Positions 4,219-39,994 of a stretch of DNA of 64,000 nucleotides are shown in pieces. Origin of the DNA: Escherichia coli. GTDB lineage: Bacteria; Pseudomonadota; Gammaproteobacteria; Enterobacterales; Enterobacteriaceae. The DNA is taken from assembly GCF_009931435.1 (NCBI RefSeq), contig NZ_CP043414.1; one strand, written 5' to 3'. The first letter of the stretch is position 1; every line of letters begins with the position of its first letter. Position numbers and translations under genes: made by a program. Below the pieces are notes generated by a model. That model saw only the letters and a list, made by a program, of their open reading frames with translations. It searched no databases and was not told where the DNA came from.

Positions 4219-4229
4219 AAGGAAACATC

Positions 4230-13261: not shown

Positions 13262-13313
13262 TCCCTTCCAGTGAGATAAAGGATTGCTACATTACGTTCT
13301 GAAAGGCTTTTTT

Positions 13314-13331: not shown

Positions 13332-13387
13332 CCAGAGGCGATAACTGTAGGACAAAATCAACGACCTTATGAAATCGTTGGTGATAT

Positions 13388-14515
13388 ATGTCAAATCTGT
13401 TTGCGATTAATGTCTGTAAAACGTTCGGTTGTCGAAATTTGGGATTGGCCTCATCGGAAGATTACAGTTGGCCAGACTATAAACTGGGTTTTCCGGCACT
13501 GCACTGCCAGGCATGCGGAAGTTACCCCCCTTTGTTTGATGAACAACAATTTCGTGACTGGTTGTCAGTTCACATGACTGCGTGTGCCATAGAAACAGGG
13601 CATTTTTGTCCATCATGCTATTGTAAAGAAAAGATTTTTTATGGCCACAACCCGCAGGGAACACAACGCGTTCAATGCCGTTCATGCAAAAAAGTCTGGA
13701 CTCCGAAACAGCAGCCAGCAAGAGAAATTACGTATCCCCAGTCCATTGAAACCGTTCAACTGTTCATGCCCTTTCAAGGAGCCAGCGCAGTACAAAAGCT
13801 CTATGTTTTAGTCAGTCTTGACGCCACTCGTGGCAACATCCTTCATCTCTCCACGAATTATACGCAACATCAGACAGGAGACAGTCTGCGGTACAGTTAC
13901 AGAGGCAATACAGAACCAACTGAGCACCATAGCGATATTGTGCAGAGGGTAGATATGCGTGAAGCGCAATTCTTGCGCCGGAGCCAGTTCGATGAAATTC
14001 AGTATGGCAGTGCTGTGCTCAAGCGCAACGGCAAGGGAGCCATACTACGCCCGGTTATCACGGCACACGGGCATTTCAGAATACTGAAAATCCGCTTTCC
14101 ACATGTCAAAACGCATATCATTTCACACGAATGTTTTCTGAGAGGCGCAATTATTACAGCCTGGGCAGATCAGTTCCGCCAACAACAAGGCGAACTTTGG
14201 TTCGTAGAAGAAGAAATCAGCGACCGTAACGCTGATATTCCCTGGCATTTTCAGGGAACGACATACCATGGTTGGTGGCAAAATCAGTGGCAACGCTGGG
14301 GGCAGGGGAATAACAGCAAGATGGTCTGCCTGCTCACAGGAGTCTCCTTAGAAAGGGGCGCAAATGTTTCTCTGGCAACCAGTCGTTGCTTTATCACATG
14401 GCTGACAGACCAACACGACTTTACCCAAAGCGCGTTATTATCCGCAGGTCGCGTAACGAAAATGCTGACCTCACTGGCGTTAAAATACAATGAATCGCTC
14501 ACTCCATCTTGTTAG
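13388..14515 (+). CDS. Cys-rich (putative zinc-ribbon) protein of unknown function
   Basis: 375-aa ORF; N-terminal clusters C-x2-C...C-x2-C (CQACGS, CPSCYC, CRSCKK) resembling zinc-ribbon modules; no confident family assignment. Confidence 0.55.
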   Translation: MSNLFAINVCKTFGCRNLGLASSEDYSWPDYKLGFPALHCQACGSYPPLFDEQQFRDWLSVHMTACAIETGHFCPSCYCKEKIFYGHNPQGTQRVQCRSCKKVWTPKQQPAREITYPQSIETVQLFMPFQGASAVQKLYVLVSLDATRGNILHLSTNYTQHQTGDSLRYSYRGNTEPTEHHSDIVQRVDMREAQFLRRSQFDEIQYGSAVLKRNGKGAILRPVITAHGHFRILKIRFPHVKTHIISHECFLRGAIITAWADQFRQQQGELWFVEEEISDRNADIPWHFQGTTYHGWWQNQWQRWGQGNNSKMVCLLTGVSLERGANVSLATSRCFITWLTDQHDFTQSALLSAGRVTKMLTSLALKYNESLTPSC

Positions 14516-14744
14516 TCAATACACTCGACAAACGACCATAAATTAATGGGATCACTATTTCTCATTTAATTAAATATATGAATGTATGACTGAAAAATAT
14601 AATCACAGTCAATGTTTAATTAATAACATTATTTGTTACTAAGATCACATAATACTTTCCTGACCTATGCTCTTATAAAAATAAGACACGGTGTTCCTTT
14701 TATTTAAATAATTCAACCAATGTAACAACCCCTATCAAGGAGGG

Positions 14745-16298
14745 ATGATGAGAACTGTATTTACGACTTTATCAGTCATATTCAGCGTGATGTTTTCTCA
14801 CAGTATACTAGCTCAGGACGTTACTATTTATTATACGAATGATATTCACGCACATGTCAATCCGGCAAAAATTCCCGCTGTTGATAAGAACAGACTTGTA
14901 GGTGGTATGGCTAATATTGCAGGCATCGTTAATGAAGCGAAGAAAAAAAACAAAGATGTCTTTTTCTTTGATGCAGGCGACTATTTTACCGGTCCGTATA
15001 TCAGTACCCTGACCAAAGGTGAAGCTATTATTGATATCATGAACACCATGCCCTTTGATGCGGTGTCCGTTGGTAATCACGAGTTCGATCACGGCGTGCC
15101 CAATATGGTATCTCAGTTATCAAAAGCAAAATTCCCCATTCTGCTGGGAAATATTTACTACACCGATACAAATAGACCAGTTTGGGATCATCCGTGGACC
15201 ATTATCGAAAAAGATGGTTTAAAGATTGGTGTGATTGGATTGCATGGTGCATTCGCTTTCTATGATACAGTCGCGGCAAAAGCACGTGAAGGCGTAGAAG
15301 CCAGAGACGAAATTAAATATTTAAATAAAGCACTTGCAGAATTAAAAGGTAAAGTCGACATTACCGTTTTGCTAATTCACGAAGGTGTTCCGGCGCGTCA
15401 ATCAAGCTTTGGTAGTAAAGATGTGGAGCGGCTACTACAGGCAGATATTGAGACAGCTAAAAAAGTGAATGGTGTTGATGTCTTAATTACCGGTCACGCA
15501 CATGTCGGAACACCGCAACCAATAAAAGTTAATAACACATTAATTGTATCTACCGATGCATACGGCACCGACATCGGAAAACTTGTGCTTGATTACAATC
15601 CGAAAACAAAGAAAATTGATAGTTATAATGGTGAGTTAATCACCATCTTTGCAGATCAATTTAAACCTGACACCATCGTTCAAAATACTATCGATAAATG
15701 GAGCGTAAAGCTTAACAAAATCACACAGGAAGTTGTCGGCCATTCTCCCGTAGTTTTAACACGTGAGTATGGCAGTTCTTCTTCTACCGGTAACCTTATT
15801 CTGGATGCAATGATGGAAAAAGCACCTGATGCCATTGCCGGATTTCAAAATAGCGGTGGGATGCGAGCTGATTTTCCTAAAGGTGATATCACACTGGGAG
15901 ATGTTATTAGCACATTCCCCTTTAATAATGACCTCATCGAGATGGATTTGACGGGCCGCGATCTCAAATCATTGATGACGCATGCAACCAATCTAACTAA
16001 CGGTGTGTTACAGGTTTCAAAAAGCGTTGCGGTTGTCTATGACAGCAAAAAACCACTCAACCAGCGGTTAATCTCTTTCACCATTAACGGCAAACCCGTG
16101 GAAGATAATCAAACATATCGTATTGCCACGCACTCCTTTTGTGCCAGTGGTGGTGACGGTTTTGAAGCATTTTTGAATGGAAAAAATGTGAAGACGATAC
16201 CGGGAACAACCTCGGCGGAATCTATCATCGATTATTTCAAAAATCATAAACCTGTCACCCCAGACTTAACTAAACGAGTCATGGACGTCGCCAAATAA
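14745..16298 (+). CDS. Secreted metallophosphatase/5'-nucleotidase family protein (paralog B)
   Basis: 517 aa; signal peptide; same metallophosphatase motif set as paralog A but most divergent of the three. Confidence 0.8.
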   Translation: MMRTVFTTLSVIFSVMFSHSILAQDVTIYYTNDIHAHVNPAKIPAVDKNRLVGGMANIAGIVNEAKKKNKDVFFFDAGDYFTGPYISTLTKGEAIIDIMNTMPFDAVSVGNHEFDHGVPNMVSQLSKAKFPILLGNIYYTDTNRPVWDHPWTIIEKDGLKIGVIGLHGAFAFYDTVAAKAREGVEARDEIKYLNKALAELKGKVDITVLLIHEGVPARQSSFGSKDVERLLQADIETAKKVNGVDVLITGHAHVGTPQPIKVNNTLIVSTDAYGTDIGKLVLDYNPKTKKIDSYNGELITIFADQFKPDTIVQNTIDKWSVKLNKITQEVVGHSPVVLTREYGSSSSTGNLILDAMMEKAPDAIAGFQNSGGMRADFPKGDITLGDVISTFPFNNDLIEMDLTGRDLKSLMTHATNLTNGVLQVSKSVAVVYDSKKPLNQRLISFTINGKPVEDNQTYRIATHSFCASGGDGFEAFLNGKNVKTIPGTTSAESIIDYFKNHKPVTPDLTKRVMDVAK

Positions 16299-16332
16299 AA
16301 TATCATTTATCAGTCTATTTATTTAACAAGGA

Positions 16333-17958
16333 ATGCGAATGAAAACAGTGCAGCGTACTTTACTTGCCGCAACATTGCTGACTATTTTTTCGGTTTCAGT
16401 CATGGCGCAGGATGTCACGATTATTTATACAAATGATCTTCACGCTCATGTGGATTCTTATAAAGTGCCGTATATCGCAGACGGAAAACGCGACATTGGC
16501 GGCTTTGCCAATATATCTACTTTAGTAAAACAAGAGAAAGCGAAAAATAAAGCCACCTTTTATTTTGATGCTGGAGACTATTTCACCGGCCCTTATATCA
16601 GCAGTCTGACAAAGGGCGAAGCAATAATTGACATTATGAATACCATGCCTTTTGACGCAGTATCAATCGGTAATCATGAGTTTGACCATGGCTGGGATAA
16701 TGCCCTGCGACAATTAAGCAAAGCGAATTTTCCTGTTTTATTGGGCAATGTTTATCATAAAGAGAGTGAGAAACCCTTCTGGAACAAGCCCTACACCATC
16801 CTGGAAAAAGATGGCATCAAGATTGGTATTATTGGGCTACACGGCGTATTTGCATTTAATGATACGGTCTCGGAGCTCTCTCTCCAGGGACTCGATAATG
16901 ACAATAATAACCGCTTTGATAAATCTTCCGAGACCCTTAAGAATCAGGGGATTGAAGCACGTGATGAAGTGAAGTATTTGCAACATTATATCGACGAGTT
17001 ACGTGATAAGGTTGACCTCACTGTGGCGCTGGTTCATGAAGGCGTTCCGGCGCGTCAGTCCAGCATTGGCAATACAGATGTTAGACGCGCTCTTGATAAA
17101 GATATTCAAACCGCTAGCAAGGTGAAAGGATTGGATATTCTGATTACCGGGCATGCCCACGTCGGAACGCCAGAACCAATCAAAGTCGGCAACACCTTAA
17201 TCCTTTCAACTGATAGTGGCGGTATCGATATTGGTAAATTAGTCCTTGATGTCAACCCTACAGCTCGTACCCATAAAATGAAGAGCTTTGAGCTGAAAAC
17301 AGTTTATGCCGATGAATGGATACCCGATCCAACGACACAAAAAGTTATCAATGGCTGGAATAAAAAACTGGCGGATATTGTACGCCAACCAGTGGGTGAA
17401 TCATCGATTGCATTAACTCGCGCCTATGGTGAGTCATCGCAACTAGGCAACCTGTTTACCGATGCAATGCTTGTCGCTGCTCCGACTGCACAGATTGCAT
17501 TGATAAACTCCGGCAGCTTACGTGCGGATATAAATGCAGGCACGATTACCTTTGGCGACATTACCAGTACATTCCCCTTCAAGAATGAACTTACTGAAAT
17601 GGATCTCAGCGGTAAGGATCTGCGTAACCTACTGGAACACGGGGCATCGCTTACCAATGGCATCCTGCAAATGTCAAAAGGCGCAGAAATGCGCTATACC
17701 CCGCAGAAACCAGTAGGTCAGCGCATAGTATCTTTTAAAATTAATAGTGAAGAGATCGTTGATACGAATATTTACCATGTTGCAACAACGACTTTCCTTG
17801 CACTGGGGGGCGATGGTTTTCTGGCATTCAAAGAAGGGAAAAATGTTCAGGTCCGCGCCGGAAATAACATGTCCGATGTCGTGATCGATTATTTGAAGAA
17901 AGGCCACAAGATTACGCCTGCACAGGTAAATGAAATGCGGGTGGACGTTAGCAAATAA
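16333..17958 (+). CDS. Secreted metallophosphatase/5'-nucleotidase family protein (paralog C)
   Basis: 541 aa; closely related to paralog A over most of its length, with a 20-aa insertion (ELSLQGLDNDNNNRFDKSSE...). Confidence 0.8.
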   Translation: MRMKTVQRTLLAATLLTIFSVSVMAQDVTIIYTNDLHAHVDSYKVPYIADGKRDIGGFANISTLVKQEKAKNKATFYFDAGDYFTGPYISSLTKGEAIIDIMNTMPFDAVSIGNHEFDHGWDNALRQLSKANFPVLLGNVYHKESEKPFWNKPYTILEKDGIKIGIIGLHGVFAFNDTVSELSLQGLDNDNNNRFDKSSETLKNQGIEARDEVKYLQHYIDELRDKVDLTVALVHEGVPARQSSIGNTDVRRALDKDIQTASKVKGLDILITGHAHVGTPEPIKVGNTLILSTDSGGIDIGKLVLDVNPTARTHKMKSFELKTVYADEWIPDPTTQKVINGWNKKLADIVRQPVGESSIALTRAYGESSQLGNLFTDAMLVAAPTAQIALINSGSLRADINAGTITFGDITSTFPFKNELTEMDLSGKDLRNLLEHGASLTNGILQMSKGAEMRYTPQKPVGQRIVSFKINSEEIVDTNIYHVATTTFLALGGDGFLAFKEGKNVQVRAGNNMSDVVIDYLKKGHKITPAQVNEMRVDVSK

Positions 17959-17970
17959 TAAAAAAATTAT

Positions 17971-18007
17971 AATGCCATTCATTCACTGAATGGCATTATT
18001 TTTCTCT
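17971..18007 (+). terminator. Hairpin plus T-run between nucleotidase C and the tsx-like gene
   Basis: AATGCCATTCA-TTCAC-TGAATGGCATT followed by ATTTTTCTC. Confidence 0.45.
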
Positions 18008-18036
18008 AAATCAACAATAGATAATGAGATATATTT

Positions 18037-18897
18037 ATGTGTATAAAAAAGCACGGGATAGCTTTATCGATTCTATTAATACCTTGCATTGGAAACGCTC
18101 AGGAAATTAAAAGTGAGGAAGGCTGGTTACATCAAAGCTTGAATGTCATTGGTCGCACAGACTCTCGCTTTGGCCCAAGGCTGACTAACGACCTCTACCC
18201 TGAATATACTGTAGCAGGAAGAAAAGACTGGTTTGATTTTTATGGTTATGTTGATCTACCAAAATTCTTTGGCGTCGGCAGTCACTATGATGTTGGGATC
18301 TGGGATGAGGGCTCACCACTATTTACGGAAATAGAACCTCGGTTTTCCATTGACAAATTGACCGGATTAAATCTTGCGTTCGGCCCTTTTAAAGAATGGT
18401 TCATTGCAAACAACTATGTCTATGATATGGGTGACAACCAGTCATCCCGGCAAAGTACATGGTATATGGGGCTTGGTACAGATATCGACACGGGTCTACC
18501 AATTAAGCTTTCTGCCAATATATACGCCAAGTATCAGTGGCAAAACTATGGTGCCGCTAATGAAAATGAATGGGACGGATATCGATTCAAAATAAAATAT
18601 AGCATTCCTCTTACCCATTTATTCGGAGGGCGATTGGTATACAATAGTTTTACTAACTTTGATTTTGGCTCCGATCTTGCGGACAAATCACACAATAATA
18701 AACGAACCAGTAATGCTATTGCTTCAAGCCATATCCTTTCCCTGCTATATGAACACTGGAAATTTGCATTTACACTACGTTATTTTCACAACGGTGGACA
18801 ATGGAATGCTGGGGAGAAAGTTAACTTCGGAGATGGTCCATTTGAATTAAAAAACACAGGATGGGGAACCTATACTACTATTGGTTATCAATTTTAA
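18037..18897 (+). CDS. Tsx-family nucleoside-specific outer-membrane channel paralog
   Basis: 286 aa; signal peptide; long collinear similarity to E. coli Tsx ([72 protein letters not shown]-terminal GY-F). Confidence 0.85.
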
Positions 18898-19078
18898 ATC
18901 AGGTGATGTTTTAGATATTTTTACTTAATGCCATTTTGTAATTGTCATAAATAACTTCACCATTCACACTGTGAATTCATCGCTCAACACAAAAGCCCCC
19001 TTATTACCGGGGCACTGACCAAAGGCAAAATGACAATCAATCACCACCTCCGCAGGAGGTGGTTTAGAGGTGACAACA

Positions 19079-19104
19079 AAAGCTGGCAACTGCCAGCTTT
19101 TGTT
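19079..19104. terminator. Symmetric, bidirectional-type hairpin downstream of metL
   Basis: AAAAGCTGGCA-ACT-GCCAGCTTTT with U-tracts on both strands, immediately 3' of the metL stop. Confidence 0.55.
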
Positions 19105-19113
19105 CAATAATCA

Positions 19114-21546
19114 CTACAACAACTGCGCCAGACGGTTAATATCCGACTGAATCGCCCCGGCGGTGACGTCGCGCCCTGCGCCTGGCCCACGGATCACCAG
19201 CGGGTTGTCGCGATACCAGCGGCTTTCGATGGCAAAGACGTTATCGCACGGTAGTAGTGATGCCAGCGGATGGTCTTCTCGCACCGCTTCCACGCCTACT
19301 CGCGCTTTGCCGTTAGCATCGAAACGCGCCACGTAGCGCAACACCAGCCCCATTTCACGGGCCGCTTCCAACCGTTGTACCATCTGCTCATTAAGTTCAT
19401 CGCCATTTTCAAAGAAATGGTCGATGCTGCCACCTTCGCAATGGGTTGGCACCAGTGATTCAACACGCACCTGGTCCGGTTCAATGTTGTAACCCGCTTC
19501 ACGCGCCAGAATCACCAGCTTGCGCATCACGTCTTTGCCGGAGAGGTCATCACGCGGGTCAGGTTCAGTTAAGCCCTGCTGCCACGCCTGATCCACCAGC
19601 TCGGTAAACGGCACGCTACCGTCGAATTGCAGGAACAGCCAGGAGAGCGTGCCGGAGAAGATCCCGCTGATCGACAAAATAGTGTCGCCGCTGTCGATCA
19701 GATCGCGCACGGTATGGTTGATCGGCAAACCTGCGCCGACGGTGGCGTTGTATAGCCAGTGACGCCCGGTTTTTTCGAACGCGTCGTGGATCTGTCGATA
19801 TTTATTGCTGTCGCTGGCTCCCGCCAGTTTGTTGGCACTGATGACGTGGAAACCGTGGCTGGCGAAATCGAGATACTGATCAGCAAGCTGCTGGCTGGCA
19901 GTAACGTCCAGCACAACTAAATCATCATACGGATGGGCACGCATCCACAGGAACAGCGACTCTTCATCCTGTTCGACGGCTTCATCATTAAAGAAGGCTA
20001 GCGCACGGCTGGCGTCCAGCCCGTCATAGCTCAACAGGCTGCGACGGCTGTCCACCACGCCTGCCAGCACAAATTCAAAGCCGGTGCGCGCCGAGAGTGT
20101 ACTCTGCTCACGGGCGAACAGTTCCAGCCAGCGGGAACCGATATTGCCCTTACCGAACAATACCAGGCCGATGCGTTTTTCTGCGCGGAAGACGGACTGA
20201 TGCAGCCCCTGAATCAGGCTTTCGGTCGGGCCGGTGCGCAGTACTGCCACCAGGCTGATGCCGTCATCGGACTGCCAGGTAAACTCGACCGGCTGGCCTT
20301 TCAGTTGCTGCCAGAAGCGGTGGCAATGCAGCGGGTTACGGGTGACGCCCGCCCCAACCATCGCCACCAGCGCCAGCCCCTGACGCAGACGCAGTTCGCC
20401 GGGTAATCCTGCTTCGTCGAGGATTTTCAGCGCACTGTCGGCCACTTCCGAGGTGTAGCAAAATTGCAGCAACTGGCGATCGTTATGCACGCCAACTGCC
20501 AGTGGGCGCACCTGAGCACGTTTCAGGATTTGGTCGATCTCTTTATGCGCCAGTTTAAAATCCTGACTGGCGGGCACCTGAAACTCAATCAAACAGACAT
20601 CATCGTGGCTGGTGACAATACGCGCGCCAGTACCTGAGGCCAGCACGCGTTCAATGCGCGTGGAACCTTGATCCGGCGTGTAGCTACAGCGCAGCTGCAG
20701 GTCGATTTCGCTGCCAGAAACTGGCTGTAAAGTACGGGCGTGAAGAACGGGGGCCGCCAGACGCGCCAGTTCGCTGGCTTCATCCAGACGCAGCAACGGC
20801 AGCAGGCAGGCGTCTTTCACTTTACGCGGGTCGGCGCTATATACCCCGGCGACATCGCTCCAGATGGTTACGCGGGAAACTCCCGCCAGCGCACCGATTT
20901 GTGTCGCGGAATAGTCGGAACCGTTACGCCCCAGCAGCACCGTTTCACCGGCGTTGTTACGGCTGATAAACCCGGTCACCACCAGACGTTTGCCCGGATG
21001 TTGTACCAGTAGCTGTTGCAGCAACGGGTAAGAAAGCCCTTCATCAACCTGCGGCTGCGCGGCGCGTTCAGCGCGTAAAAACTCGCGGGCATCAAGCCAG
21101 GCCGCTGGCAGCCCTTGTTGATTAAGTACCGCAGACATCAGGCGCGCCGACCACACTTCACCGTGGCCCACCACTTCCGCATACACCGCATCGTTAATAC
21201 CGCTGTCGAGCAGCGCCGCCAGGCGTTCCAGATCGCTGACAAAAGCGCTAATGAGGCTATCGGCTTCTTCAGCGGGTAGCAGGCCGCTAATCAGATCGCA
21301 CTGATAGCGACGCAGCGTTTGTTGAACCTGATGCGCAGAGAGACGATCGGTCTGGCTTAGTTTCAACCAGTTAATCAACTGGTTAGTGGTGCTACCGGCG
21401 GCGGAAACCACCATCATATCGTCAGGCTGAGAGTACTCCGCCATAATGCCCGCGACACGCAAATAACACTTCACATCAGCCAGACTACTGCCACCAAATT
21501 TATGCAGTTGACGACCTTTCGCCCCTGCCTGCGCAATCACACTCAT
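19114..21546 (-). CDS. metL: Bifunctional aspartokinase II / homoserine dehydrogenase II
   Basis: 810-aa ORF; start overlaps metB stop region (operon metBL). Confidence 0.95.
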   Translation of the reverse strand: MSVIAQAGAKGRQLHKFGGSSLADVKCYLRVAGIMAEYSQPDDMMVVSAAGSTTNQLINWLKLSQTDRLSAHQVQQTLRRYQCDLISGLLPAEEADSLISAFVSDLERLAALLDSGINDAVYAEVVGHGEVWSARLMSAVLNQQGLPAAWLDAREFLRAERAAQPQVDEGLSYPLLQQLLVQHPGKRLVVTGFISRNNAGETVLLGRNGSDYSATQIGALAGVSRVTIWSDVAGVYSADPRKVKDACLLPLLRLDEASELARLAAPVLHARTLQPVSGSEIDLQLRCSYTPDQGSTRIERVLASGTGARIVTSHDDVCLIEFQVPASQDFKLAHKEIDQILKRAQVRPLAVGVHNDRQLLQFCYTSEVADSALKILDEAGLPGELRLRQGLALVAMVGAGVTRNPLHCHRFWQQLKGQPVEFTWQSDDGISLVAVLRTGPTESLIQGLHQSVFRAEKRIGLVLFGKGNIGSRWLELFAREQSTLSARTGFEFVLAGVVDSRRSLLSYDGLDASRALAFFNDEAVEQDEESLFLWMRAHPYDDLVVLDVTASQQLADQYLDFASHGFHVISANKLAGASDSNKYRQIHDAFEKTGRHWLYNATVGAGLPINHTVRDLIDSGDTILSISGIFSGTLSWLFLQFDGSVPFTELVDQAWQQGLTEPDPRDDLSGKDVMRKLVILAREAGYNIEPDQVRVESLVPTHCEGGSIDHFFENGDELNEQMVQRLEAAREMGLVLRYVARFDANGKARVGVEAVREDHPLASLLPCDNVFAIESRWYRDNPLVIRGPGAGRDVTAGAIQSDINRLAQLL

Positions 21547-22985: not shown

Positions 22986-23303
22986 ATGGCTGAATGGAGC
23001 GGCGAATATATCAGCCCATACGCTGAGCACGGCAAGAAGAGTGAACAAGTCAAAAAGATTACGGTTTCCATTCCTCTTAAGGTGTTAAAAATCCTCACCG
23101 ATGAACGCACGCGTCGTCAGGTGAACAACCTGCGTCACGCTACCAACAGCGAGCTGCTGTGCGAAGCGTTTCTGCATGCCTTTACCGGGCAACCTCTGCC
23201 GGATGATGCCGACCTGCGTAAAGAGCGCAGTGACGAAATCCCGGAAGCGGCAAAAGAGATCATGCGTGAGATGGGGATTAACCCGGAAACGTGGGAATAC
23301 TAA
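22986..23303 (+). CDS. metJ: Methionine repressor
   Basis: Start [35 protein letters not shown]; 105 aa. Confidence 0.95.
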
Positions 23304-23362
23304 AGCGGAAAAGAGCGGCGCGGAGTTAACCAGCCGCTTTTTTCATACATGGACGTTTAACT

Positions 23363-23971
23363 ATGAAATACAGGCTACTGATCCTCAGCCTGCTGGTTTC
23401 TGTGCCTGCCCTTGCCTGGCAGCCGGAAACTGGCGACATCATCTTTCAGATCTCTCGCTCATCGCAAAGTAAAGCAATCCAACTGGCGACCCATTCCGAT
23501 TACAGCCACACCGGTATGCTGGTGATGCGTAACAAAAAGCCCTACGTTTTTGAAGCGGTCGGCCCGGTGAAATACACCCCGCTCAAGCAGTGGATCGCCC
23601 ATGGTGAAAAGGGCAAATACGTTGTTCGCCGCGTTGAAGGCGGACTGAGTGTTGAACAACAGCAAAAACTGGCGCAAACGGCAAAACGTTATCTCGGAAA
23701 ACCGTACGATTTCAGCTTCTCATGGAGCGACGATCGCCAGTACTGTTCGGAAGTGGTGTGGAAGGTTTACCAGAATGCGCTGGGGATGCGCGTGGGTGAA
23801 CAGCAAAAACTGAAAGAGTTCGATCTCAGCAACCCGCTGGTTCAGGCGAAGCTCAAAGAACGTTACGGGAAAAATATTCCGCTTGAGGAAACGGTGGTCT
23901 CGCCACAAGCCGTTTTCGATGCGCCACAACTCACCACAGTCGCCAAAGAATGGCCGCTGTTTTCGTGGTAA
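23363..23971 (+). CDS. yiiX: Putative lipid-binding hydrolase (permuted papain-like family)
   Basis: 202-aa ORF with signal peptide; synteny next to metJ. Confidence 0.88.
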   Translation: MKYRLLILSLLVSVPALAWQPETGDIIFQISRSSQSKAIQLATHSDYSHTGMLVMRNKKPYVFEAVGPVKYTPLKQWIAHGEKGKYVVRRVEGGLSVEQQQKLAQTAKRYLGKPYDFSFSWSDDRQYCSEVVWKVYQNALGMRVGEQQKLKEFDLSNPLVQAKLKERYGKNIPLEETVVSPQAVFDAPQLTTVAKEWPLFSW

Positions 23972-23974
23972 TGG

Positions 23975-24298
23975 ATGATGAAAAAAATAATTCCCGCCGT
24001 AGTCTGTTTGTTGCTTTGTAGTTGCACGACCTTTCCGCAAGCTGTCGCTCCGGCAGGGAAAGATTACGAAAGCCCGCTCCCCGCAAGGACTGACGCCAGA
24101 TACTTTCTGTCCATGGCTGCTTTTCGCATCTTACGTCTTAACCCTGCCTTGAATACCTTATCATTCGTTAAAATATTAATAGCGATGTGCCGTATCCCTG
24201 AAAATAATTCTGCGGCGTTTCCTCTTCGTATTTTGCAGTCGTCTTCATTCATTACCACGTCCAGACGCCAGTGCAGCTTATTCTCCACGTGCCAGTGA
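23975..24298 (+). other. ORF with lipoprotein-like N-terminus running into the antisense strand of the H-repeat element; probably a truncated or chimeric gene
   Basis: MMKKIIPAVVCLLLCSCTTF lipobox-like start 3 nt after yiiX stop; downstream part is antisense to the transposase pseudogene. Confidence 0.25.
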
Positions 24299-25199
24299 TT
24301 TCGGATCGCTGTGGCGAACTTTTCTGCGGTTAAATCAGCAGAACTGATATAATATCTGACCGTCATTTCTGGCTCTTTCTTTTGTTCTGCTATTATTGAC
24401 CGAAAGGAGAATGCCACGCATAATTTCTTCAGTCCTTTCCATTCAAACGTGAAATCAATAAGTTCATCACGGACATCGCAAACAATATGAAGACGGATTT
24501 CTTCTCTGCCGTGACTCTTTTCACTCATTGCGTAACTGTCATGCTCTGGATTATTTAATTCTTTCAGCGGAAATTTTTCCTCGAAGGCTTTATTTAGCCG
24601 CCCCTGATTTCCTTTTACAGAGAATAAATAATCACCTCCCTGTTTTTGTATCTTCTCTGCAATATCTTTCTGGCAACCCATCGCATCAGTTGTGATAATT
24701 TTTCCTTTATATCCAGCATGTTAAGAAGTTCAGGGATAGCAGTAATCTCATTGGATTTCTCATCCGTCTTGATCTGTCCGATGACCAGACTGTGCATTGT
24801 TGAGAACGCACTAATGACATGAATCGCTCCCCTGCGGCGACTCTTGTCATAAGAATGCCGGAGTGTTTTTCCATCAATTGCGATGACGTCTTTATCATCT
24901 GAAGTATGGCAATCTCGCATCCAGTTAATAAAGCACTCGTGAAATTTTGAAGGACTGATACAGGATACAACTCTGGCGATGGTATCGTGAACAGGAATAC
25001 CATTTTCAAAATCACCATATTGTTTTAAAAAATCGCGATGTGCTTCCCCAAAATCCTCTATATGTTCCCAGCCTTCTGCACCAGAAATAACGGCACAAAT
25101 AGTCAACAGTAGAATATCCGACAATTTATGTTTCACTTTTGCAGGATTGTCTGCAATCGGGAATAACAGAAATATGTTCCATCAATTTTTTAAGTTCCA
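24064..25199 (-). pseudogene. ISAs1-family (H-repeat-associated) transposase, disrupted by frameshifts
   Basis: Three pieces ([11 protein letters not shown]... from 25199; 173-aa ORF 24615-25136; 205-aa ORF 24064-24681) are jointly collinear with the ~378-aa E. coli H-rpt protein (YhhI-like) as recalled. Confidence 0.8.
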
Positions 25200-25350
25200 T
25201 TCTTTTCTCCTTAATTATGTAAGGAGTATTTGATCATGTATAAGCAATAAAAAAACAGCTTCAGGCAATGAGGAATATCTCAATTTTTAAACATAAAATG
25301 CGAATTGTTTAGTACAAAAAAGCAGCGTTAAGTGATCTTTCCCTGTCGGC

Positions 25351-25665
25351 ATGTTGACCACTGACGAATGGGGTAGTTACGCTAGAGAGTTACCAAAGGA
25401 GAAGCATCTGACTGGTAAGATTTTTACTCAGCATATTGAGCGTAACAATCTGACCCTGAGAACCCGAATCAAACGTCTGGCCCGCAGAACCATCTGTTTC
25501 TCGCGTTCTGTAGAACTTCATGAAAAAGTCATCGGTGCTTTTATCGAAAATATATGTTCTACTAATTGGAGTCATCACCCTTCTGATGAGCTTTCCTTGG
25601 ATGATTACCAGACTGAATACATAGCCAAAGATTTTTACCTCATTCTGCTTTTTTTTCTCAAATGA
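25351..25665 (+). pseudogene. IS1-family InsB-like transposase C-terminal fragment
   Basis: TDEWGSY...FTQHIERNNLTLRTRIKRLARRTICFSRSVELHEKVIG parallels the IS1 InsB C-terminus (TDGWPLY...[38 protein letters not shown]); the N-terminal catalytic part is missing. Confidence 0.6.
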
Positions 25666-25958
25666 CATATATTATATTTTATATCATATTCATAGGCATA
25701 TGACATTCCCCCGCCCCCCATTATGTCATTGTGGGTTGATGTTGGGCTTTCATAAAAAAATACATCTTTTTTTGAACTAGCATTAATTATATTTACTTTA
25801 TATATTAAAATATTTTCTCCATCTGGAAATATTTTAGCCACACAATATAAAGCAGCTAAATCCGAATTACTTAAAAATATATTGTCATCACTCATAACTC
25901 CAGCCATTAAATGACTGGAGACTAAAGCAAGGAAATAACAACATTGTATTACCTTCAT
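25635..25958 (-). CDS. Candidate Rhs immunity protein
   Basis: ATG 2 nt after the rhs stop (TAA-a-ATG coupling); 107 aa from MKVIQCCYFLALVSSHLMAG (hydrophobic, signal-like N-terminus); strongly AT-rich. Confidence 0.5.
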   Translation of the reverse strand: MKVIQCCYFLALVSSHLMAGVMSDDNIFLSNSDLAALYCVAKIFPDGENILIYKVNIINASSKKDVFFYESPTSTHNDIMGGGGMSYAYEYDIKYNICHLRKKSRMR

Positions 25959-25959
25959 T

Positions 25960-28900
25960 TTAATTACTCCCTTGCCTGATAATTGTAACTCCATTCCCTT
26001 TAGCTTTGGGATTATATTTTAGATAGGTGTTATTTGGTGTTCCCAAGTAACTACTGTATTCTTTTTTTCCCATTCCATTCATATAAGAATTCGTTAAATC
26101 TTTGCTTGAAAAATTTAGACTATCATAAACATCATTTTCTTTTGTTACTTTATTTCCTTTATCGTCAGAGTAAAAACCGTGAGTGTGATAATCGCCTACT
26201 CTCTCTGAACCTTCAGGGCATTTTATATTTCGCAAGTCTACACTATCATTATCATTTGAACTTATCGGATTCATGGGGAAATATTCACCTTGCTTCTTAC
26301 ATATTAGTCCACCATATTCTTTATTCTCGTTAATTGATTCTCCATTACACATTGCCAATGCAAATATTCCAATATCATCTATATTTTTTGATTTAAATTC
26401 ATATAATCCTAATGGATCCATGCCATTCACCGGGCTCAGCGGATATGTATACAGGTTCCATCCCCCCTTCAGCCCAATCGGATCCTGAGTGATATACCGC
26501 CCCTGCAGCGGGTCATAATAGCGGTGGCGGTTGTAATACAGGCCGGACTCCTCATCATACTGCTGACCCGGCAGGCGGATGAGCTGCTGCAGCTGGTGCG
26601 GGTTCTCTTCATTCAGCAGGTTGCCCCATTCATCGTATTCTGCGCACCATTCTGTTGCCCCTTCCGTGCTGATAAGCACCAGCGGCAGGCCGCGATGGTC
26701 GCAGTGGTACAGGTGGATTTTTCGCGCCGGCGTGTACACCGGTTCCATCTGGTTTTGCATCTGCGCCACCGTCAGGCCGCACGATGCCAGCCAGCGGCGG
26801 CTTTCCTCACTCACCCGGTCAGCCAGGATTTCACTTTCCAGCCGGTCGAGCATCTGCACCAGCACCGGCGGGAACACCACACTGCCACCGTCTTCGCCGC
26901 CGGACTGCTGAAGCGCATCCGCCAGGCTGCGGCGCTGCGTTTTCGCCAGCTCACCGGTGGCGGTTTCGACCCTGATGAGTGGCGTGAAGCTCCCCGGCTG
27001 ATAAACCGTCTGGATGCGGGTTCTGTCGTTCTGTATCGTGGTCAGCCGGTCGCCGTCCCAGCCGTACCAGGTCACTTCCGGTTTCCGTGACAGCGACATC
27101 CAGCCCGTCAGGTCCCGTTCACGCCGCCACACCCGTTTTGCCACCCTGCGGCCCAGCGGGTCGTAAAGATAGCGACTTTCGACCAGCGGCTCTGCATATT
27201 GTGTCCGCGTGTAGTGCACCAGCCGGTGCCGGCTGTCGTAATGGTACCGGTGAGTCCGCTCATCATCCGTGCGGATAACCCCTTCCGGGATGAGGTCGGT
27301 TTTCTCTGTCAGCCTGCCGTGACGGTCATACCGGTAAAGATAGTGCGCGTCACGGGCGATACGGTTATCCGGCCACATGCTGAGGGTGCTGTCCGGGTGC
27401 AGCTCCGGGTCGGGCAGGCGGTTACCTGCCGGGTCCGTGGCATACGGGATGCGGATATCCAGATTCGCTGCGGTGGTGTGAACGCCGGTCAGCCTGCCGG
27501 TGGTGCTGTAGCTGTAACTCCGGGTCTGGCGCGGGCTGCTGATGCGAATGAGTTCGCCGTTGTCGTTCCAGGTGTAATCGCGGTCATACTGCAGGCTGTT
27601 CAGGTGCTGGCTCTGTAACTGCCCGGCAGGGGTGTAAGCGGTGGTGAGTTCATAACGGCCGAAGCTGCGCAGCGTTTCCCGGTGCAGGCGGTCGCGGGTG
27701 AAATCCACCAGCGGTGTGTCGCCGAGTTTCATCCCTGCCAGGTAACCACTGCCATAAGTCAGCCATTCCACGGCGGGCAGGCTGTCCGGTATACAGCGGT
27801 TCGCCAGCCCCTGCGCGTTGTACGCATGTCTGGTTTCATGCTGCCAGAGCAGTGCTTCCGTCTGCGGGTGATGCACCGTCTGGCGCTCACCGGTCAGGCG
27901 GCCTTTCTCATCATACCCGTAATGCACCGTCACCCGGTGCCCTTCGCTGAGATGGCTGATGCCTGTCAGCCAGCCGCGTTCGTCGTACCGCCACTGTTCT
28001 GCGGTTTCACCATTCACCGTTCGCTGCGTGATGCGGTCTGCTTCGTCATAGTGCCAGTGGGTGACCAGTCCCTCATCCTCGCTGCGGATAAGTTTGCCGG
28101 TCAGGTCGTGGTGATAACGCTGTGTGCGGCCGTCAAAGCCGGTTTCCTGTATCAGCCGGTCGAGTACATCGTAACGGAAGGTGGTGTGGCTGCCGTTTTC
28201 GTTTGTCAGGCGGATGACCCGTCCTGCAGCATCGTATTCCATACTGCGGGTCAGCCCGCCCTGCGTGGTACGGACGGCCTTTCCCCACGCATCGTACTGT
28301 GCCCCGTATCTGCTGCCGTCCGGGGCAATGACGGTGGTCAGGTCACCGGCGGCGTTGTATTCATACCGCGTTTCATGGCCCTGCGTGTCTTTCACCGCAA
28401 TTAACTGTCCATGGCTGTCGTATGCGCGGCACTGGCTCAGGCCTTCCTCGCGGTGCACCGCCGTCATCTGCCCGAAGCGGTCATGGTCATAACGGGTCTG
28501 GTAGCCGGAACAGTCGGTGAAGGTCAGCAACTGACCGTAACGGCTCCACGTCATGGTTTTCCGGCTGCCGGTGGCATCTTCCGTTGCGCAGGGGAAGTCA
28601 CTGTGTGGATTATCATAACGGTAGCGGATGATATCGCCGTCAGGGGCAGTTTCCTGAATCAGACGGCCGGATTCATCATATTCCCGGCGTATTTCCAGCC
28701 CGTCAGGCCCGGTGGCTGACGTTAACTGGTTGTGGTGGTTATAGTAAAACGCCGATGCCCTGCCATCCGGCGTGGTGATGCGCGTGATGAGTCCCGTCAC
28801 CACATCCGGGCTGTATTCTGTTGTCCGGCCTGCGGCATCCGTCTGTGTCCTGAGCCTGCCCACCGCGTCAAACTGACTCTGCGTGACGCTGCCGTCCGCG

Positions 28901-30144
28901 TGTTCCTTTTTCACCACCCGCTTCAGCCCGCCTTCGCCTGCGGTATGCAGGACTTCATGGCGGTCCAGGCTGTCGGTGATGGTGATGCGGTCTTTCTCAT
29001 ACTGATACGTGTAGCTTAAGCCTGCCGGGTTTAGCTGTTCTGTCACCCGCCCGTCGCTGTCGTAACGGTAACGGATTTCCGGCCGGCCCGTGTGACGGTG
29101 CGCCACCATCCGGCCCCGGTATTTATCATCGTAAGTAAAGCTGCGCACCTGTGTATTGCTGCGGTCATACACCGCCGCCAGTTCGCCGCGCGGCGTCCAG
29201 CCATAGCGCACCAGCGGCGTGGCTGGCAGGTTGTCCGGGTATTCCGGGTCGTGCGTCAGCCACACGGCAGACAGACGGATACCGTTGTCCCGGCCATATT
29301 CCGTGTAGTCCGGCAGGGTATCAGGAAAAGCGGACTGTTCCGCCCCGCCGGAAGAGGCCTGCTGCCGGGCCTCTTCTGCCCGCTGCGCCTGCGTGGTCAG
29401 TGCCAGCCGGAAGTGACGCCCGGCACCATCCGTCACGCCGGTGATTTCGCCGCTGAATTCACCGGCGGCTTCGCGGTGAAACGTCTGTGTGCGCCCGAAG
29501 CGGTCCACCAGCCCGGTCAGTACCCGGTACGGCGGCAGCGGCGCGGGCAGCACCTCATCCGCCTCCGGCACCCGCTCACACCAGCCGAGTACCCACCACG
29601 GCCCCTGCGGACTGTTCGTCGCCAGATAACGATGCGGACTCAGGCGAAGCTCTTCCGGCAGCGCCTGCCAGAGTGCGGCCAGCCGGTGACCTTCATCCAG
29701 TCTCAGGACGCCGCCGCGCACCAGCCAGAGTGACTCGCTGCGGCTGTAACCGTCCTCACCGGGAAACAGGTGCTCAAAATACAGGCTTCTGCCGCCGTTA
29801 TCACTGAGTATCAGTGTGTTATCGCGCAGCTGTAAGCGGATATCCGCAGGCATTTTCCAGCCGGGGCCGAGAATACCCACCGGCGCGGGCGTTTTTGTCC
29901 GGTAACTGCTGTACGTGCGGGAGAGGATGAACGGCAGCGGTCCGGGCAGGGCAATGTCTGTCTCGCCGGGAAGGACCTTTGCACCGAGCAGGGGATTGAC
30001 CGGATGGCCGGACGTCACCCCGCCGGGGCACACCGAACAGGCCACGCCGGTGGGGGCACCAATACGTACCCCGGCTGAACCCTGAACAATGCTACCGCCA
30101 TACTGCGTCATGTCGCCCTGACGCGCCGCCGGTTTTCCGCTCAT
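25960..30144 (-). CDS. Rhs-family protein with variable C-terminal toxin domain
   Basis: 1394 aa; N-terminus [23 protein letters not shown] typical of E. coli RhsA/B/C-class; YD repeats; DPLGL boundary motif then a 147-aa AT-rich C-terminal tip. Confidence 0.9.
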
Positions 30145-30262
30145 CGTAAAATCCTTTTAAAATAAATAAGAACCAGAAGCCTAGCGCCAGTCAACAACAG
30201 GAAATGATAATGAGTTAACACCCCGGAATTTTTCAGAATTTATAAAAGGCAAATTACAGGCA

Positions 30263-30290
30263 CAAAAAAAGCGCCGTGCGGCGCTTTTTT
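30263..30290 (-). terminator. rpmE intrinsic terminator
   Basis: AAAAAAAGCGCCGTGCGGCGCTTTTTT, a symmetric hairpin with U-tract just 3' of rpmE. Confidence 0.6.
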
Positions 30291-30303
30291 CGGAAATCCG
30301 GTC

Positions 30304-30555
<252 letters not shown>

Positions 30556-30559
30556 CTAA

Positions 30560-32917
<2,358 letters not shown>

Positions 32918-38186: not shown

Positions 38187-38672
38187 ATGAAATACGATAC
38201 TTCCGAGCTTTGTGACATCTATCAAGAAGATGTTAACGTCGTGGAACCGCTGTTCTCCAACTTTGGCGGACGGGCGTCGTTTGGCGGACAAATAATCACG
38301 GTAAAATGTTTCGAGGACAACGGGTTGCTGTACGATCTGCTCGAACAGAATGGCCGTGGTCGTGTTCTCGTCGTTGATGGCGGTGGTTCTGTTCGTCGCG
38401 CACTGGTCGATGCTGAGCTGGCGCGTCTGGCAGTACAAAATGAATGGGAAGGCCTGGTCATTTACGGCGCGGTGCGTCAGGTAGATGACCTGGAAGAGCT
38501 GGATATCGGCATCCAGGCGATGGCAGCAATTCCAGTCGGTGCCGCTGGCGAAGGCATTGGCGAAAGCGATGTCCGCGTTAATTTTGGCGGCGTCACCTTC
38601 TTCTCCGGTGACCATCTTTATGCCGACAATACCGGAATTATTCTTTCAGAAGATCCGCTGGATATTGAATAA
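38187..38672 (+). CDS. rraA: RNase E regulator RraA
   Basis: 161 aa [28 protein letters not shown]. Confidence 0.92.
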
Positions 38673-38930
38673 GTACCTGCCATGCGTTAAAAGGGGAATT
38701 AAATTCCCCTTTTTTATATGCAAAATATTCATAAAGACTATCGTTTGTTTTTATTTAATTCATTTTAAATATCAATAGTTCACATCTGACAATATAAATT
38801 AATTATCGATAAATCATTTCATAAAAATATGCAGCATTAAAAATTAATGCTATATGGTAAATTAACTATTCTGGGAATAGGGATATGAATCATCGTTAGT
38901 AGCGAACGTATTATATAATAAGGGATTGAT

Positions 38931-39647
38931 ATGAGATACGTTATCTTATTAATACTATGGATAATAACTACTTTTCTTAGTCATCTTCAGCACAGCAACC
39001 TACTGTCTGGAGATCCTGGCATGGTTGGCGAGTATATCGGTTCAGTATTTCTGGGGCCGTTGTTACTTCCCGTGCTTGTGTCAGGTATTCTGTGCGCATT
39101 TATTAAAAAAAAACGTAACTTCGCCAGTTTTACTCGCGGGTGCTGTTGGGTATTGGGAATCCTGCTTTTATCCAAAGTCGGCAATACGTTTCGTATGTTT
39201 ACCCCGTGGCAATATACCTTTGAGAATGCTGCGATAACCGTGACTATCCCGAACCGACACTGGAATACGGTTTCCATCAGTACTAATAAAACCATTGATA
39301 TAAGAAGTGAGGATAATAGCGTCTTCATTTCTGCTTTCCGCCTGCCCGCAGGACGTAGCGCCGATGACCCGCTGGAAGCGTTAAAGAAGAAGCAGCGAGA
39401 CAATCTCAAGGATCAATACAATGAGGAAGCCTTCCAGTTTCATGATTGTAATGCCAAACATTTCACCTGTAAGTATCAGGATGTGTTGATAAATTTTGAT
39501 GGTCAGCAGAAAAGAACCATCAGTGTTTATCTTGAAGACACCCCCAGGGCTGTGGGGATCATTGCATTAATGGCGCCAGATACGGCAGATAAATATCGCC
39601 AACAGGCGATGGAGATTATGCTTTCCGCTAAAAATGCAGTGAAGTAA
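38931..39647 (+). CDS. Hypothetical membrane-anchored protein (strain-specific)
   Basis: 238-aa ORF; N-terminal hydrophobic segments (predicted TM) then a ~150-aa soluble domain; preceded by ~240 bp of very AT-rich DNA; no family recognised. Confidence 0.5.
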   Translation: MRYVILLILWIITTFLSHLQHSNLLSGDPGMVGEYIGSVFLGPLLLPVLVSGILCAFIKKKRNFASFTRGCCWVLGILLLSKVGNTFRMFTPWQYTFENAAITVTIPNRHWNTVSISTNKTIDIRSEDNSVFISAFRLPAGRSADDPLEALKKKQRDNLKDQYNEEAFQFHDCNAKHFTCKYQDVLINFDGQQKRTISVYLEDTPRAVGIIALMAPDTADKYRQQAMEIMLSAKNAVK

Positions 39648-39653
39648 AAAATA

Positions 39654-39675
39654 AGGCGCCTTGCGGCGCCTCTGC
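39654..39675. terminator. Hairpin shared by the 238-aa ORF and zapB 3' ends
   Basis: AAGGCGCC-TTGC-GGCGCCT between convergent genes. Confidence 0.4.
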
Positions 39676-39685
39676 GTGGAAGAGA

Positions 39686-39994
<309 letters not shown>

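Follow-up and report, generated by a model that had tools for sequence, protein, structure and literature searches.

An intact Rhs toxin gene, a small partner gene and two dead insertion sequences between yiiX and rpmE of Escherichia coli

In the Escherichia coli DNA analysed here (hereafter the window, a stretch of 64,000 nucleotides), the 6.3 kb between yiiX and rpmE consist of an intact Rhs toxin gene, a small partner gene and two dead insertion sequences. We are highly confident that they represent the Rhs element already known from the yiiX-rpmE/priA locus, with a core of the RhsA-B-C-F subfamily and in the simple form, which has a single full-length rhs and a single tip. The element is real but ordinary, since its site has been published and about 40% of complete E. 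coli genomes carry an Rhs element there. We observed directly which genes and domains it contains, which locus it occupies, how frequent it is in the population and how its junctions are built; its most likely function is that of a polymorphic toxin-immunity pair in contact-dependent competition.

The yiiX-rpmE locus and its junctions

In K-12, yiiX and rpmE are neighbours, as the original prediction had stated; they lie 60 bp apart with nothing in between, and the same rhs copy is absent from that site. In the window, about 6.3 kb separate the two genes, and the parts that the prediction had listed lie where it had placed them or a few bases away (Table 1). Its description of the location as non-K-12 holds in that the site is empty in K-12, but the location is not new, being a published and very common Rhs locus. 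Likewise, the element does stand between yiiX and rpmE, but it was not simply inserted there, since most of a TIGR02117-family gene has been replaced by it. Homology to K-12 stops at 23972/23973 and restarts at 30257, where homology to other genomes with an empty site also restarts, and the element proper spans 24054-30256. The DNA at 23975-24053 does not belong to the Rhs element; it is what remains of the 5′ end of a chromosomal gene lost from K-12. Strain ws5-3 carries this TIGR02117/DUF2459 gene intact (624 nt), and the window matches its start and diverges at 24054. Among complete E. coli genomes, the gene is whole in 288 and only its first ~81 nt are left in about 2,178. A 107-aa ORF at 23975-24298 was rejected as a gene, being a chimera of this remnant running on into ISAs1.

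Table 1. Features of the yiiX-rpmE interval and its flanks (positions in the window)
Feature	Position	Strand	Basis or remark
yiiX, left chromosomal flank	23363-23971	+	NCBIfam YiiX equivalog, 354.6 bits; 94.6% nucleotide identity to K-12 yiiX
Ancestral TIGR02117/DUF2459 lipoprotein-like gene, first 79 nt	23975-24053	+	Aligned to the intact gene of strain ws5-3
ISAs1-family H-repeat (ISEc1-like), 1292 bp, inactivated transposase	24054-25345	-	NCBIfam transpos_ISAs1
IS1H right-end fragment, 234 bp	25346-25579	+	Left ~535 bp missing; IS1 transposase profile
dsORF-f3, 107 aa, presumed cognate immunity protein	25635-25958	-	97-98% identical to RefSeq 'RHS element protein dsORF-f3'
rhs, whole gene, 1394 aa	25960-30144	-	NCBIfam RHS_core equivalog
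rhs tip, residues 1248-1394 and stop codon, DUF4329/Tox-JAB-2	25960-26403	-	Pfam; 30-34% GC
rhs core, residues 1-1247, YD-repeat shell	26404-30144	-	NCBIfam and Pfam
Locus-specific rhs leader, 112 nt	30145-30256	-	Kept in 2013C-4282 and MS 69-1, two other aligned genomes with Rhs at the site
rpmE intrinsic terminator, intact	30263-30290	-	Base-for-base identical to K-12
rpmE, right chromosomal flank	30304-30516	-	ORF
L31 leader RNA of rpmE	30523-30575		Rfam RF03157, 60.1 bits

At the right junction, the rpmE terminator is intact, as had been predicted, and folds into a 13-bp hairpin (-20.2 kcal/mol, z = -3.6). Only the last ~20 nt of the adjoining rhs leader resemble the upstream region of K-12 rhsB. 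The leader presumably carries a promoter and a ribosome-binding site; a promoter scan of its 112 nt found no consensus promoter.

At the left side, ISAs1 has the terminal inverted repeats CAGGGAAAGAT, and its transposase, which the prediction had called frameshifted, is frameshifted twice. Relative to the intact copy in 2013C-4282, an extra C stands at 25141 and a T is missing near 24710, and two ORFs match positions 1-140 and 146-314 of the NCBIfam transpos_ISAs1 profile. The flanks of ISAs1 differ, with the gene remnant on one side and the interior of IS1 on the other, and there is therefore no target-site duplication around it. The IS1-like fragment proved to be an end fragment of IS1H, collinear in its DNA with the full IS1H copies in MS 69-1 (where it corresponds to the right end) and O157:H7 TR01, and its ORF covers positions 155-199 of the 199-position IS1 transposase profile. 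The exact left junction, in which the gene remnant is joined to ISAs1, occurs in only two of 5,426 complete genomes; in most, a full IS1 occupies this place. Both insertion sequences, the H-repeat and the IS1H stub, are inactive passengers and bear witness to earlier rearrangements at the element's distal end. In one of these rearrangements, 5 nt of the gene remnant were lost together with the left 535 bp of IS1H.

Comparison across the pangenome places an Rhs element at the yiiX-rpmE junction in about 2,180 of the 5,426 complete E. coli genomes (~40%), including O157:H7. Three counts of occupancy agree: at least 80% of a 7.3-kb query is found in one place in 2,055 genomes, yiiX and rpmE are contiguous in 3,244, which leaves about 2,181 with a split site, and 2,178 have only the gene remnant. 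The module of tip and dsORF-f3 is present in 2,164 genomes. In O157:H7 TR01, the order is yiiX, IS1, dsORF-f3, a 1394-aa rhs and rpmE. In the literature, 11 rhs loci of E. coli are numbered, and yiiX-priA is position 11; positions 10 and 11 are derived from position 5 by duplication, and positions 5 and 9-11 carry almost identical cores (Jackson et al., 2009, PMC2935791, Table 3). The region b3936-b3937 holds rhsW7 in E. coli W and EcolC_4081 in Crooks, and the element is absent from K-12 and B (PMC3032704, Table 6). The element of the window shares the location of position 11, from yiiX to rpmE-priA, and has the same junctions as other genomes. We take the locus to be probably RhsF of Zhao and Hill 1995 (ECOR-50), an equation that rests on the RefSeq name dsORF-f3 (the proteins are 97-98% identical) and on map position.

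A different origin might be read from the insertion sequences at one end, from the base composition (59-68% GC in the rhs core and 30-34% in the tip vs ~51% in the flanks) and from the polymorphism of the site within the species, namely that the 6.3 kb are a mobile island of recent acquisition, whether a composite transposon bounded by IS or an integrative element targeting the rpmE terminator. This is highly improbable. Both junctions were searched for target-site features, and there are no direct repeats around the element, ISAs1 or IS1H; insertion sequences are confined to one end, and an integrase is lacking. Furthermore, the right junction is identical in two other aligned Rhs-bearing genomes, the same gene remnant is found in ~2,180 genomes, and rhs cores cluster by chromosomal position (Jackson et al., 2009, PMC2935791). 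Because the right junction and the gene remnant are shared in this way, the locus is consistent with a single ancient event and subsequent vertical inheritance and homologous exchange.

The rhs gene, its tip and its partner

The rhs gene is full-length, as had been claimed, and its 1394-aa product matches the NCBIfam RHS_core equivalog with 2620 bits vs a cut-off of 2000. The YD_repeat and Rhs_assc_core models also match, and the Pfam domains are DUF6531, RHS repeats (at least 11) and RHS. The protein consists of an N-terminus with a literal PAAR motif (P-A-A-R at residues 5-8), DUF6531 (residues 46-123), the YD-repeat shell and an Rhs-associated core ending in DPLGL, followed by a 147-aa tip. 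Pfam reports DUF6531 alone in the N-terminal part and no match to a PAAR domain in residues 1-45. Membership in the RhsA-B-C-F core subfamily was defined as near-identity to rhsA/B/C DNA together with more than 20% divergence from rhsD/E. Nucleotide identity of the core to K-12 is 96.0% for rhsA, 96.1% for rhsB and 95.0% for rhsC vs 77.7% for rhsD and 78.0% for rhsE, which among the K-12 clades assigns it to RhsA-B-C-F and not to rhsD/E. A composite E. coli Rhs element as defined by the Hill laboratory has a GC-rich YD-repeat core ORF of ~3.7 kb, a motif, an extension, a small ORF and an H-repeat or IS. Here, the core, the PxxxxDPxGL motif at residues 1238-1247 with its AT-rich in-frame extension, the downstream ORF and the distal H-repeat/IS are all present, and the canonical architecture named in the original prediction is supported by the GC-rich core, the AT-rich tip, the coupled downstream ORF and the H-repeat and IS debris.

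The tip matches DUF4329 of Pfam (E = 2.9e-15, positions 6-108 of the 116-position model) and is 37% identical to the K-12 RhsB tip and 32% to the RhsD tip; its conserved residues E, YHTHG and FSSKD align with the E, HTH and SxxD motifs of both. DUF4329 is the same as Tox-JAB-2, a domain on RHS and T6SS proteins with the motifs E, H[ST]H, S and D (Zhang et al., 2012), and all of these residues are present in the tip. For the tip toxin with its E, HTH and SxxD motifs, the activity of a metal-dependent hydrolase is predicted, and its chemistry and target are likewise predicted. The literature examined reports no biochemical assay of a DUF4329 toxin and gives the label RNase or nuclease by prediction or citation only. 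At the protein level, the tip is one substitution away from that of O157:H7 TR01.

Coupling of the small downstream ORF to rhs was confirmed: the ATG of dsORF-f3 at 25958 lies one base past the rhs stop codon (25960-25962), and an AAGGGAG Shine-Dalgarno sequence lies 8 nt upstream of it. This protein is presumed to be the cognate immunity protein of the tip toxin. Zhang et al. (2012) pair Tox-JAB-2 with Imm-NTF2-2 (PF15631) immunity, a family to which dsORF-f3 does not recognisably belong. It has no match in Pfam (even at E <= 10), NCBIfam, PADLOC or PDB and no significant BLASTP similarity to YhhH and YbbC.

Proposed function and delivery

In the PDB, the best relatives of shell and core are without exception T6SS Rhs effectors (8cp6, E = 7.3e-127; 7q97, E = 1.7e-81; 8qja, E = 9.8e-66), and the window protein shares with T6SS PAAR-Rhs effectors this homology to established members. 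By analogy with the solved Rhs effectors, we infer that the YD-repeat shell would encapsulate the C-terminal toxin and that an aspartyl autoprotease at the core end would release it by autocleavage, while dsORF-f3 would protect producer and kin cells. The toxin would most likely enter neighbouring cells by way of a T6SS encoded elsewhere in the genome. The gene linkage of T6SS PAAR-Rhs effectors is absent here, with rpmE directly upstream of rhs. No vgrG, hcp, Eag-chaperone or other T6SS gene is named near rhs in the annotated stretch of 2013C-4282 with which window positions 4785-47775 are collinear; elsewhere in the 64 kb, outside three non-K-12 insertions, the DNA aligns to K-12 backbone that names none either.

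The K-12 Rhs elements are assumed to be inert. The element of the window could also be an inert relic with intact ORFs, lacking either a working delivery system or expression, as both associated transposases are dead, the 112-nt leader has no consensus promoter, T6SS genes are absent within the 64 kb, and the T6SS of EHEC is repressed in vitro (PMC7216683, PMC7618764). This seems unlikely, since the 4.2-kb ORF and its 107-aa partner are both uninterrupted in this lineage, which differs from other E. coli by 1-5% in its DNA. Moreover, the tip protein is 100% identical to that of 2013C-4282 while the cores differ by 2.8% in DNA, which points to purifying selection or to a functional module exchanged recently.

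The lack of a linked T6SS gene, and the fact that K-12-type Rhs genes of the same subfamily likewise stand alone, would also suit an element that acts mainly inside its producer in a toxin-antitoxin-like or regulatory manner, with an internal promoter in the 3′ part of rhs expressing tip and dsORF-f3 and no secretion system involved. The AT-rich tip contains a sigma-70-like match (minus strand, 26249-26220) ~260 nt upstream of dsORF-f3, and internal promoters have reported precedents in Salmonella Rhs orphans and EHEC RhsFint-RhsFI (PMC7618764; PMC7043789). However, the match scores 9/12 in AT-rich DNA, where six such sites occur, no more than in shuffles (4.0 ± 1.9), and it lies downstream of the tip start, so that a transcript from there could encode the immunity protein but not a complete toxin. 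As for the EHEC precedent, RhsF/RhsFI belongs to another locus (S-loop 44, by vgrG and eagR) and has a different tip. The 1394-aa delivery scaffold has remained intact over its full length, which favours export, and a mainly intracellular role is decidedly unlikely beside the proposed toxin-immunity pair of contact-dependent competition.

Comparison with known systems

The solved T6SS Rhs effectors, namely Tse5 of P. aeruginosa (8cp6), Photorhabdus Rhs1 (7q97), Salmonella bongori Rhs (8qja-d) and Tse15 (8uy4), share the YD-repeat shell and Rhs-associated core with the window protein (E = 7e-127 to 1e-53) and serve as the model for encapsulation and autoproteolytic release. They have other N-terminal loading domains and toxins, and their genes are linked to vgrG/T6SS, unlike the gene of the window. 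EHEC RhsF/RhsFI (ECs0604, S-loop 44; PMC7618764) is also an E. coli Rhs toxin with a downstream immunity gene and a precedent for internal transcription, but it lies at a different locus, adjoins vgrG1 and eagR, and has a different core clade and tip. That it bears the name RhsF too is coincidental. In the naming of the EHEC group, the EDL933 rhs with a DUF4329 tip is 'RhsB' (z5488), which, to judge from its gene number, would be the EDL933 copy at the yiiX-rpmE locus.

K-12 RhsB-YhhH and RhsD-YbbC have homologous DUF4329/Tox-JAB-2 tips, and RhsB has in addition a core of the same subfamily (96% nucleotide identity). They occupy other chromosomal loci, however, and the RhsD core belongs to another subfamily (78%). 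The K-12 immunity proteins YhhH and YbbC are of PF15631 (Imm-NTF2-2), whereas dsORF-f3 of the window matches no family.

The Rhs of position 11, known as rhsW7 and EcolC_4081 and present in O157:H7, has the same flanking genes, right junction and left gene remnant as the window, and also the same core subfamily, 1394-aa length, tip and dsORF-f3. The Rhs protein of O157:H7 TR01 is identical to the window copy at 1341 of 1394 residues, and the 2013C-4282 copy is 97.6% identical. MS 69-1 represents a longer variant: its main tip is another one, with a Sel1-repeat gene as partner, and it has two orphan tips, f3 being most distal. The copy in the window differs from most other yiiX-rpmE copies in its ISAs1 H-repeat, which stands where IS1H would have its left 535 bp and the gene remnant a further 5 nt.

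Layout and junctions of the yiiX-rpmE interval

The gene order in the window is metL, metB, metJ, yiiX, an insert of about 6.3 kb, rpmE and priA. As the original prediction stated, yiiX and rpmE are neighbours in K-12, where 60 bp separates them in MG1655. A three-way alignment places the end of K-12 homology just past the yiiX stop codon and its return at the rpmE terminator, and the gap relative to K-12 spans 23973-30250 in a whole-window comparison. The parts that had been named from the sequence are all present (see the table): a full-length rhs gene, a small ORF coupled to it downstream, an IS1-like fragment, a frameshifted H-repeat (ISAs1) transposase and an intact rpmE terminator. Relative to its intact counterpart in strain 2013C-4282, the transposase has an added C at 25141 and has lost a T near 24710. 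GC content is 59-68% in the rhs core, 30-34% in the tip (the C-terminal extension of the Rhs protein) and the downstream ORF, and about 51% in the flanks, which is the classic Rhs contrast. The expected L31 ribosomal-protein leader RNA (Rfam RF03157, 60.1 bits) precedes rpmE, at 30523-30575 on the minus strand.

Features of the yiiX-rpmE interval (window coordinates)
Feature	Position	Strand	Remarks
yiiX	23363-23971	plus	left chromosomal flank
ISAs1-family H-repeat, 1292 bp	24054-25345		broken transposase
IS1 fragment	25346-25579
Small ORF dsORF-f3	ATG at 25958	minus	one base past the rhs stop; AAGGGAG Shine-Dalgarno before the ATG
rhs, 1394 aa	25960-30144	minus	NCBIfam 'RHS element core protein' equivalog, 2620 bits (cut-off 2000), residues 1-1247
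rpmE terminator	30263-30290		identical to K-12; strong hairpin
rpmE	30304-30516	minus	right chromosomal flank

Some E. coli, among them ws5-3 and B-lineage strains, carry a 624-nt TIGR02117/DUF2459 gene in the yiiX-rpmE interval. The window keeps 79 nt of the 5′ end of this gene (23975-24053) right after yiiX and then passes into the end of ISAs1 at 24054, while on the right side homology to both the gene-bearing and the empty alleles restarts at 30257, just beyond the expected stop of the gene. This left switch and right resumption delimit the Rhs element proper to 24054-30256, or 6,203 bp. Among 5,426 complete E. coli genomes, three alleles are found at the site: the intact gene in 288 (about 5%; positions 1121-1744 of locus extract L004), a clean deletion of the K-12 type in about 2,956 (about 55%), and the Rhs element accompanied by a 79-84-nt remnant of the gene in about 2,180 (about 40%). 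Given these three alleles, the element replaced a gene, and was not inserted at an empty intergenic site. About 550 bp of the chromosomal TIGR02117/DUF2459 gene was lost in this replacement, and K-12 has undergone a separate clean deletion of the same gene. The original prediction stands as to the presence of an Rhs element between yiiX and rpmE, and its reading of canonical Rhs architecture at a location empty in K-12 is supported, but the word 'inserted' needs qualifying.

Three independent counts over these genomes agree. yiiX and rpmE are contiguous in 3,244 of the 5,426, the site being split in the remaining 2,181 or so, and only the first 81 nt or so of the TIGR02117/DUF2459 gene is kept in about 2,178. 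At least 80% of window positions 23300-30600 is found in one place in 2,055 genomes, and the tip with dsORF-f3 occurs at 97% identity or more in 2,164. O157:H7 TR01, for example, has the order yiiX, IS1, dsORF-f3, a 1394-aa rhs and rpmE, and its Rhs protein is identical to that of the window at 1341 of 1394 residues, with one substitution in the tip. When bacterial species were scanned with one genome each, the 32-nt junction of rhs leader and rpmE terminator was absent from every representative.

In the common form of the element (MS 69-1, O157:H7), an 84-nt remnant abuts a full IS1H, whose right end lies 55 nt past the dsORF-f3 stop. The window lacks the left 535 bp of this IS1H together with 5 nt of the remnant, their place being taken by ISAs1, and the resulting remnant-to-ISAs1 junction was found in only two of the 5,426 genomes, one of which is 2013C-4282. 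IS1H and ISAs1 do not meet the remnant at the same base, since it measures 84 nt where IS1H follows and 79 nt where ISAs1 does. Target-site features had been proposed as a check on the junctions, and the search for them came out negative: there are no direct repeats, and hence no target-site duplications, at the ends of the element, of ISAs1 or of IS1H. IS-associated deletions, and not simple insertions, have given the element its ends. In 2013C-4282, the nearest relative, a 1.9-kb group II intron (ltrA; positions 3537-5419 of locus extract L001) sits precisely where ISAs1 and the IS1 fragment meet, a point at which the window has no intron.

O157:H7 TR01 carries a K-12-like spacer and an 18-bp copy of the rpmE terminator (CAGGCACAAAAAAAGCGC) in place of the remnant start (positions 11960-12060 of locus extract L019), so that the Rhs block is flanked by a direct repeat in that genome. 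This left junction is matched at 100% in TR01 only; the other O157:H7 genomes among the matches listed reach about 85% and lack the duplicate. The duplicate as the origin of empty sites was accordingly dropped.

The tip, dsORF-f3 and their putative function

The core of the Rhs protein ends in a motif at residues 1238-1247, and the 147-aa extension beyond it matches Pfam DUF4329 (E = 2.9e-15). This domain is Tox-JAB-2, which has a JAB fold with E/H[ST]H/S/D motifs, occurs in RHS and T6SS proteins and is predicted to be a nuclease (Zhang et al. 2012, PMC3482391). In later in-silico papers it is termed an RNase on the strength of citations, and neither these papers nor Zhang et al. 2012 contain a biochemical assay of a DUF4329 toxin. 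Activity and site of action are predictions for the whole family, including K-12 RhsB and RhsD. The tip is 37% identical to the tip of K-12 RhsB and 32% identical to that of RhsD, with every motif residue conserved. A PDB sequence search with the tip returned nothing credible, and the PADLOC defence models matched neither the Rhs protein nor the tip.

Among proteins of solved structure, the nearest to the Rhs protein are without exception T6SS Rhs effectors, namely Tse5 (E = 7e-127), Photorhabdus Rhs1, Salmonella bongori Rhs and Tse15. By analogy with these, the tip would be enclosed by the YD shell and released by autoproteolysis where the core ends in DPxGL, and the Rhs protein would be carried on the T6SS spike into neighbouring cells, with dsORF-f3 shielding the producer and its siblings. 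Three points weaken this scheme. First, Pfam detects no PAAR domain, there being just the literal residues PAAR at positions 5-8. Second, no T6SS gene is linked to rhs in the 64-kb window. Third, the toxin chemistry is predicted. An intracellular toxin-antitoxin-like or regulatory role has precedents at other loci (PMC7618764; PMC7043789). This role and simple inertness of the element are both less likely than delivery, because a diverged lineage has kept the whole 4.2-kb delivery scaffold and its partner gene uninterrupted. Backbone identity to K-12 is 94.6-98.2%, the best backbone identity among the 5,426 complete genomes is at most 98.7-98.8%, and the exact 1394-aa Rhs protein has no match in the public assembly index; together these indicate an E. 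coli-group lineage poorly represented among complete genomes.

dsORF-f3 starts at the first ATG, the one with a good ribosome-binding site, and its strong Shine-Dalgarno sequence lies inside the rhs 3′ end. Its N-terminus (MKVIQCCYFLALVSSHLMAGV; 25895-25958, minus strand) is hydrophobic and signal-peptide-like (MKVIQCCYFLALVSSHLMA/GV). The N-terminus of K-12 YbbC has a lipobox-like LFAC, and Imm65, an immunity protein for Tox-JAB-1, is a lipoprotein (Zhang et al. 2012, PMC3482391). The signal-like start of dsORF-f3 and the LFAC of YbbC hint that Tox-JAB-2 immunity may act outside the cytoplasm. We nevertheless think it unlikely that the tip and dsORF-f3 form a Tox-JAB-2 toxin with an exported, and not a cytoplasmic, partner protein. 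If immunity did act in the periplasm, these JAB-fold toxins would be peptidases on an envelope target and not the RNases or nucleases assumed by prediction, which would bear on the whole toxin family and not on this locus in particular. A sigma-70-like hexamer pair at 26220-26249 (minus strand), inside the AT-rich tip and about 260 nt upstream of dsORF-f3, could be a candidate internal promoter for the immunity gene, a consensus match that is no commoner than in shuffled sequences.

Other segments missing from K-12

Two further segments of the window are missing from K-12. One of 7.6 kb (11470-19114), between metF and metL, encodes three metallophosphatase/5′-nucleotidase proteins, a 375-aa protein without a Pfam match and a Tsx-like channel; at metF-metL, 2013C-4282 has an extra 5.2 kb with an aminotransferase, an alanine racemase and a serine hydroxymethyltransferase pseudogene. 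The other, of about 1 kb (38671-39689), between rraA and zapB, contains a 238-aa ORF (38931-39647) that the annotation of 2013C-4282 labels hypothetical. Despite the diverged backbone DNA, the MetL protein matches a very widespread sequence exactly.

Relation to known Rhs loci

The element is not new and is very common, and as a standard polymorphic Rhs locus of E. coli it has little significance beyond correct annotation. At near-identical loci, the small ORF appears in RefSeq as 'RHS element protein dsORF-f3', a nomenclature which goes back to RhsF of ECOR-50 (Zhao and Hill 1995). The EHEC 'RhsF/RhsFI' (NAR 2025) matches in name only, with another locus and another tip. dsORF-f3 itself has no Pfam, NCBIfam, PADLOC or credible PDB sequence match and no significant similarity to YhhH and YbbC, the partners of K-12 RhsB and RhsD, which, in contrast, belong to the NTF2-type family PF15631.

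To place the clade, the cores were compared over 3741 nt: identity is 96.0% to K-12 rhsA, 96.1% to rhsB and 95.0% to rhsC, and 77.7% to rhsD and 78.0% to rhsE, which assigns the core, as judged by nucleotide identity, to the RhsA-B-C-F subfamily. Cores at the same locus in 2013C-4282 and MS 69-1 are 97.2% and 96.4% identical to that of the window. In a sliding-window comparison the similarity is patchy with nothing outstanding, the pattern expected of a segment-exchanging gene family.

Eleven rhs positions have been described in E. coli and Shigella, of which position 11 is the yiiX-priA interval, at about 4,125,000 on the K-12 map; duplication of position 5 gave rise to positions 10 and 11, and position 5 has almost the same core as positions 9-11 (Jackson et al. 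2009, PMC2935791). In the E. coli W genome paper, W and Crooks carry an Rhs gene in region 'b3936-b3937' (rhsW7 and EcolC_4081, respectively), which is unoccupied in K-12 and B (PMC3032704). In longer variants, such as that of MS 69-1, the main tip is another one, partnered by a Sel1-repeat gene, and there are two orphan tips, with f3 lying outermost. The form in the window corresponds to the MS 69-1-type structure minus the segment between repeated core sequences, and this deletion between core repeats is the process of tip displacement and re-fusion of Jackson et al. (PMC2935791).
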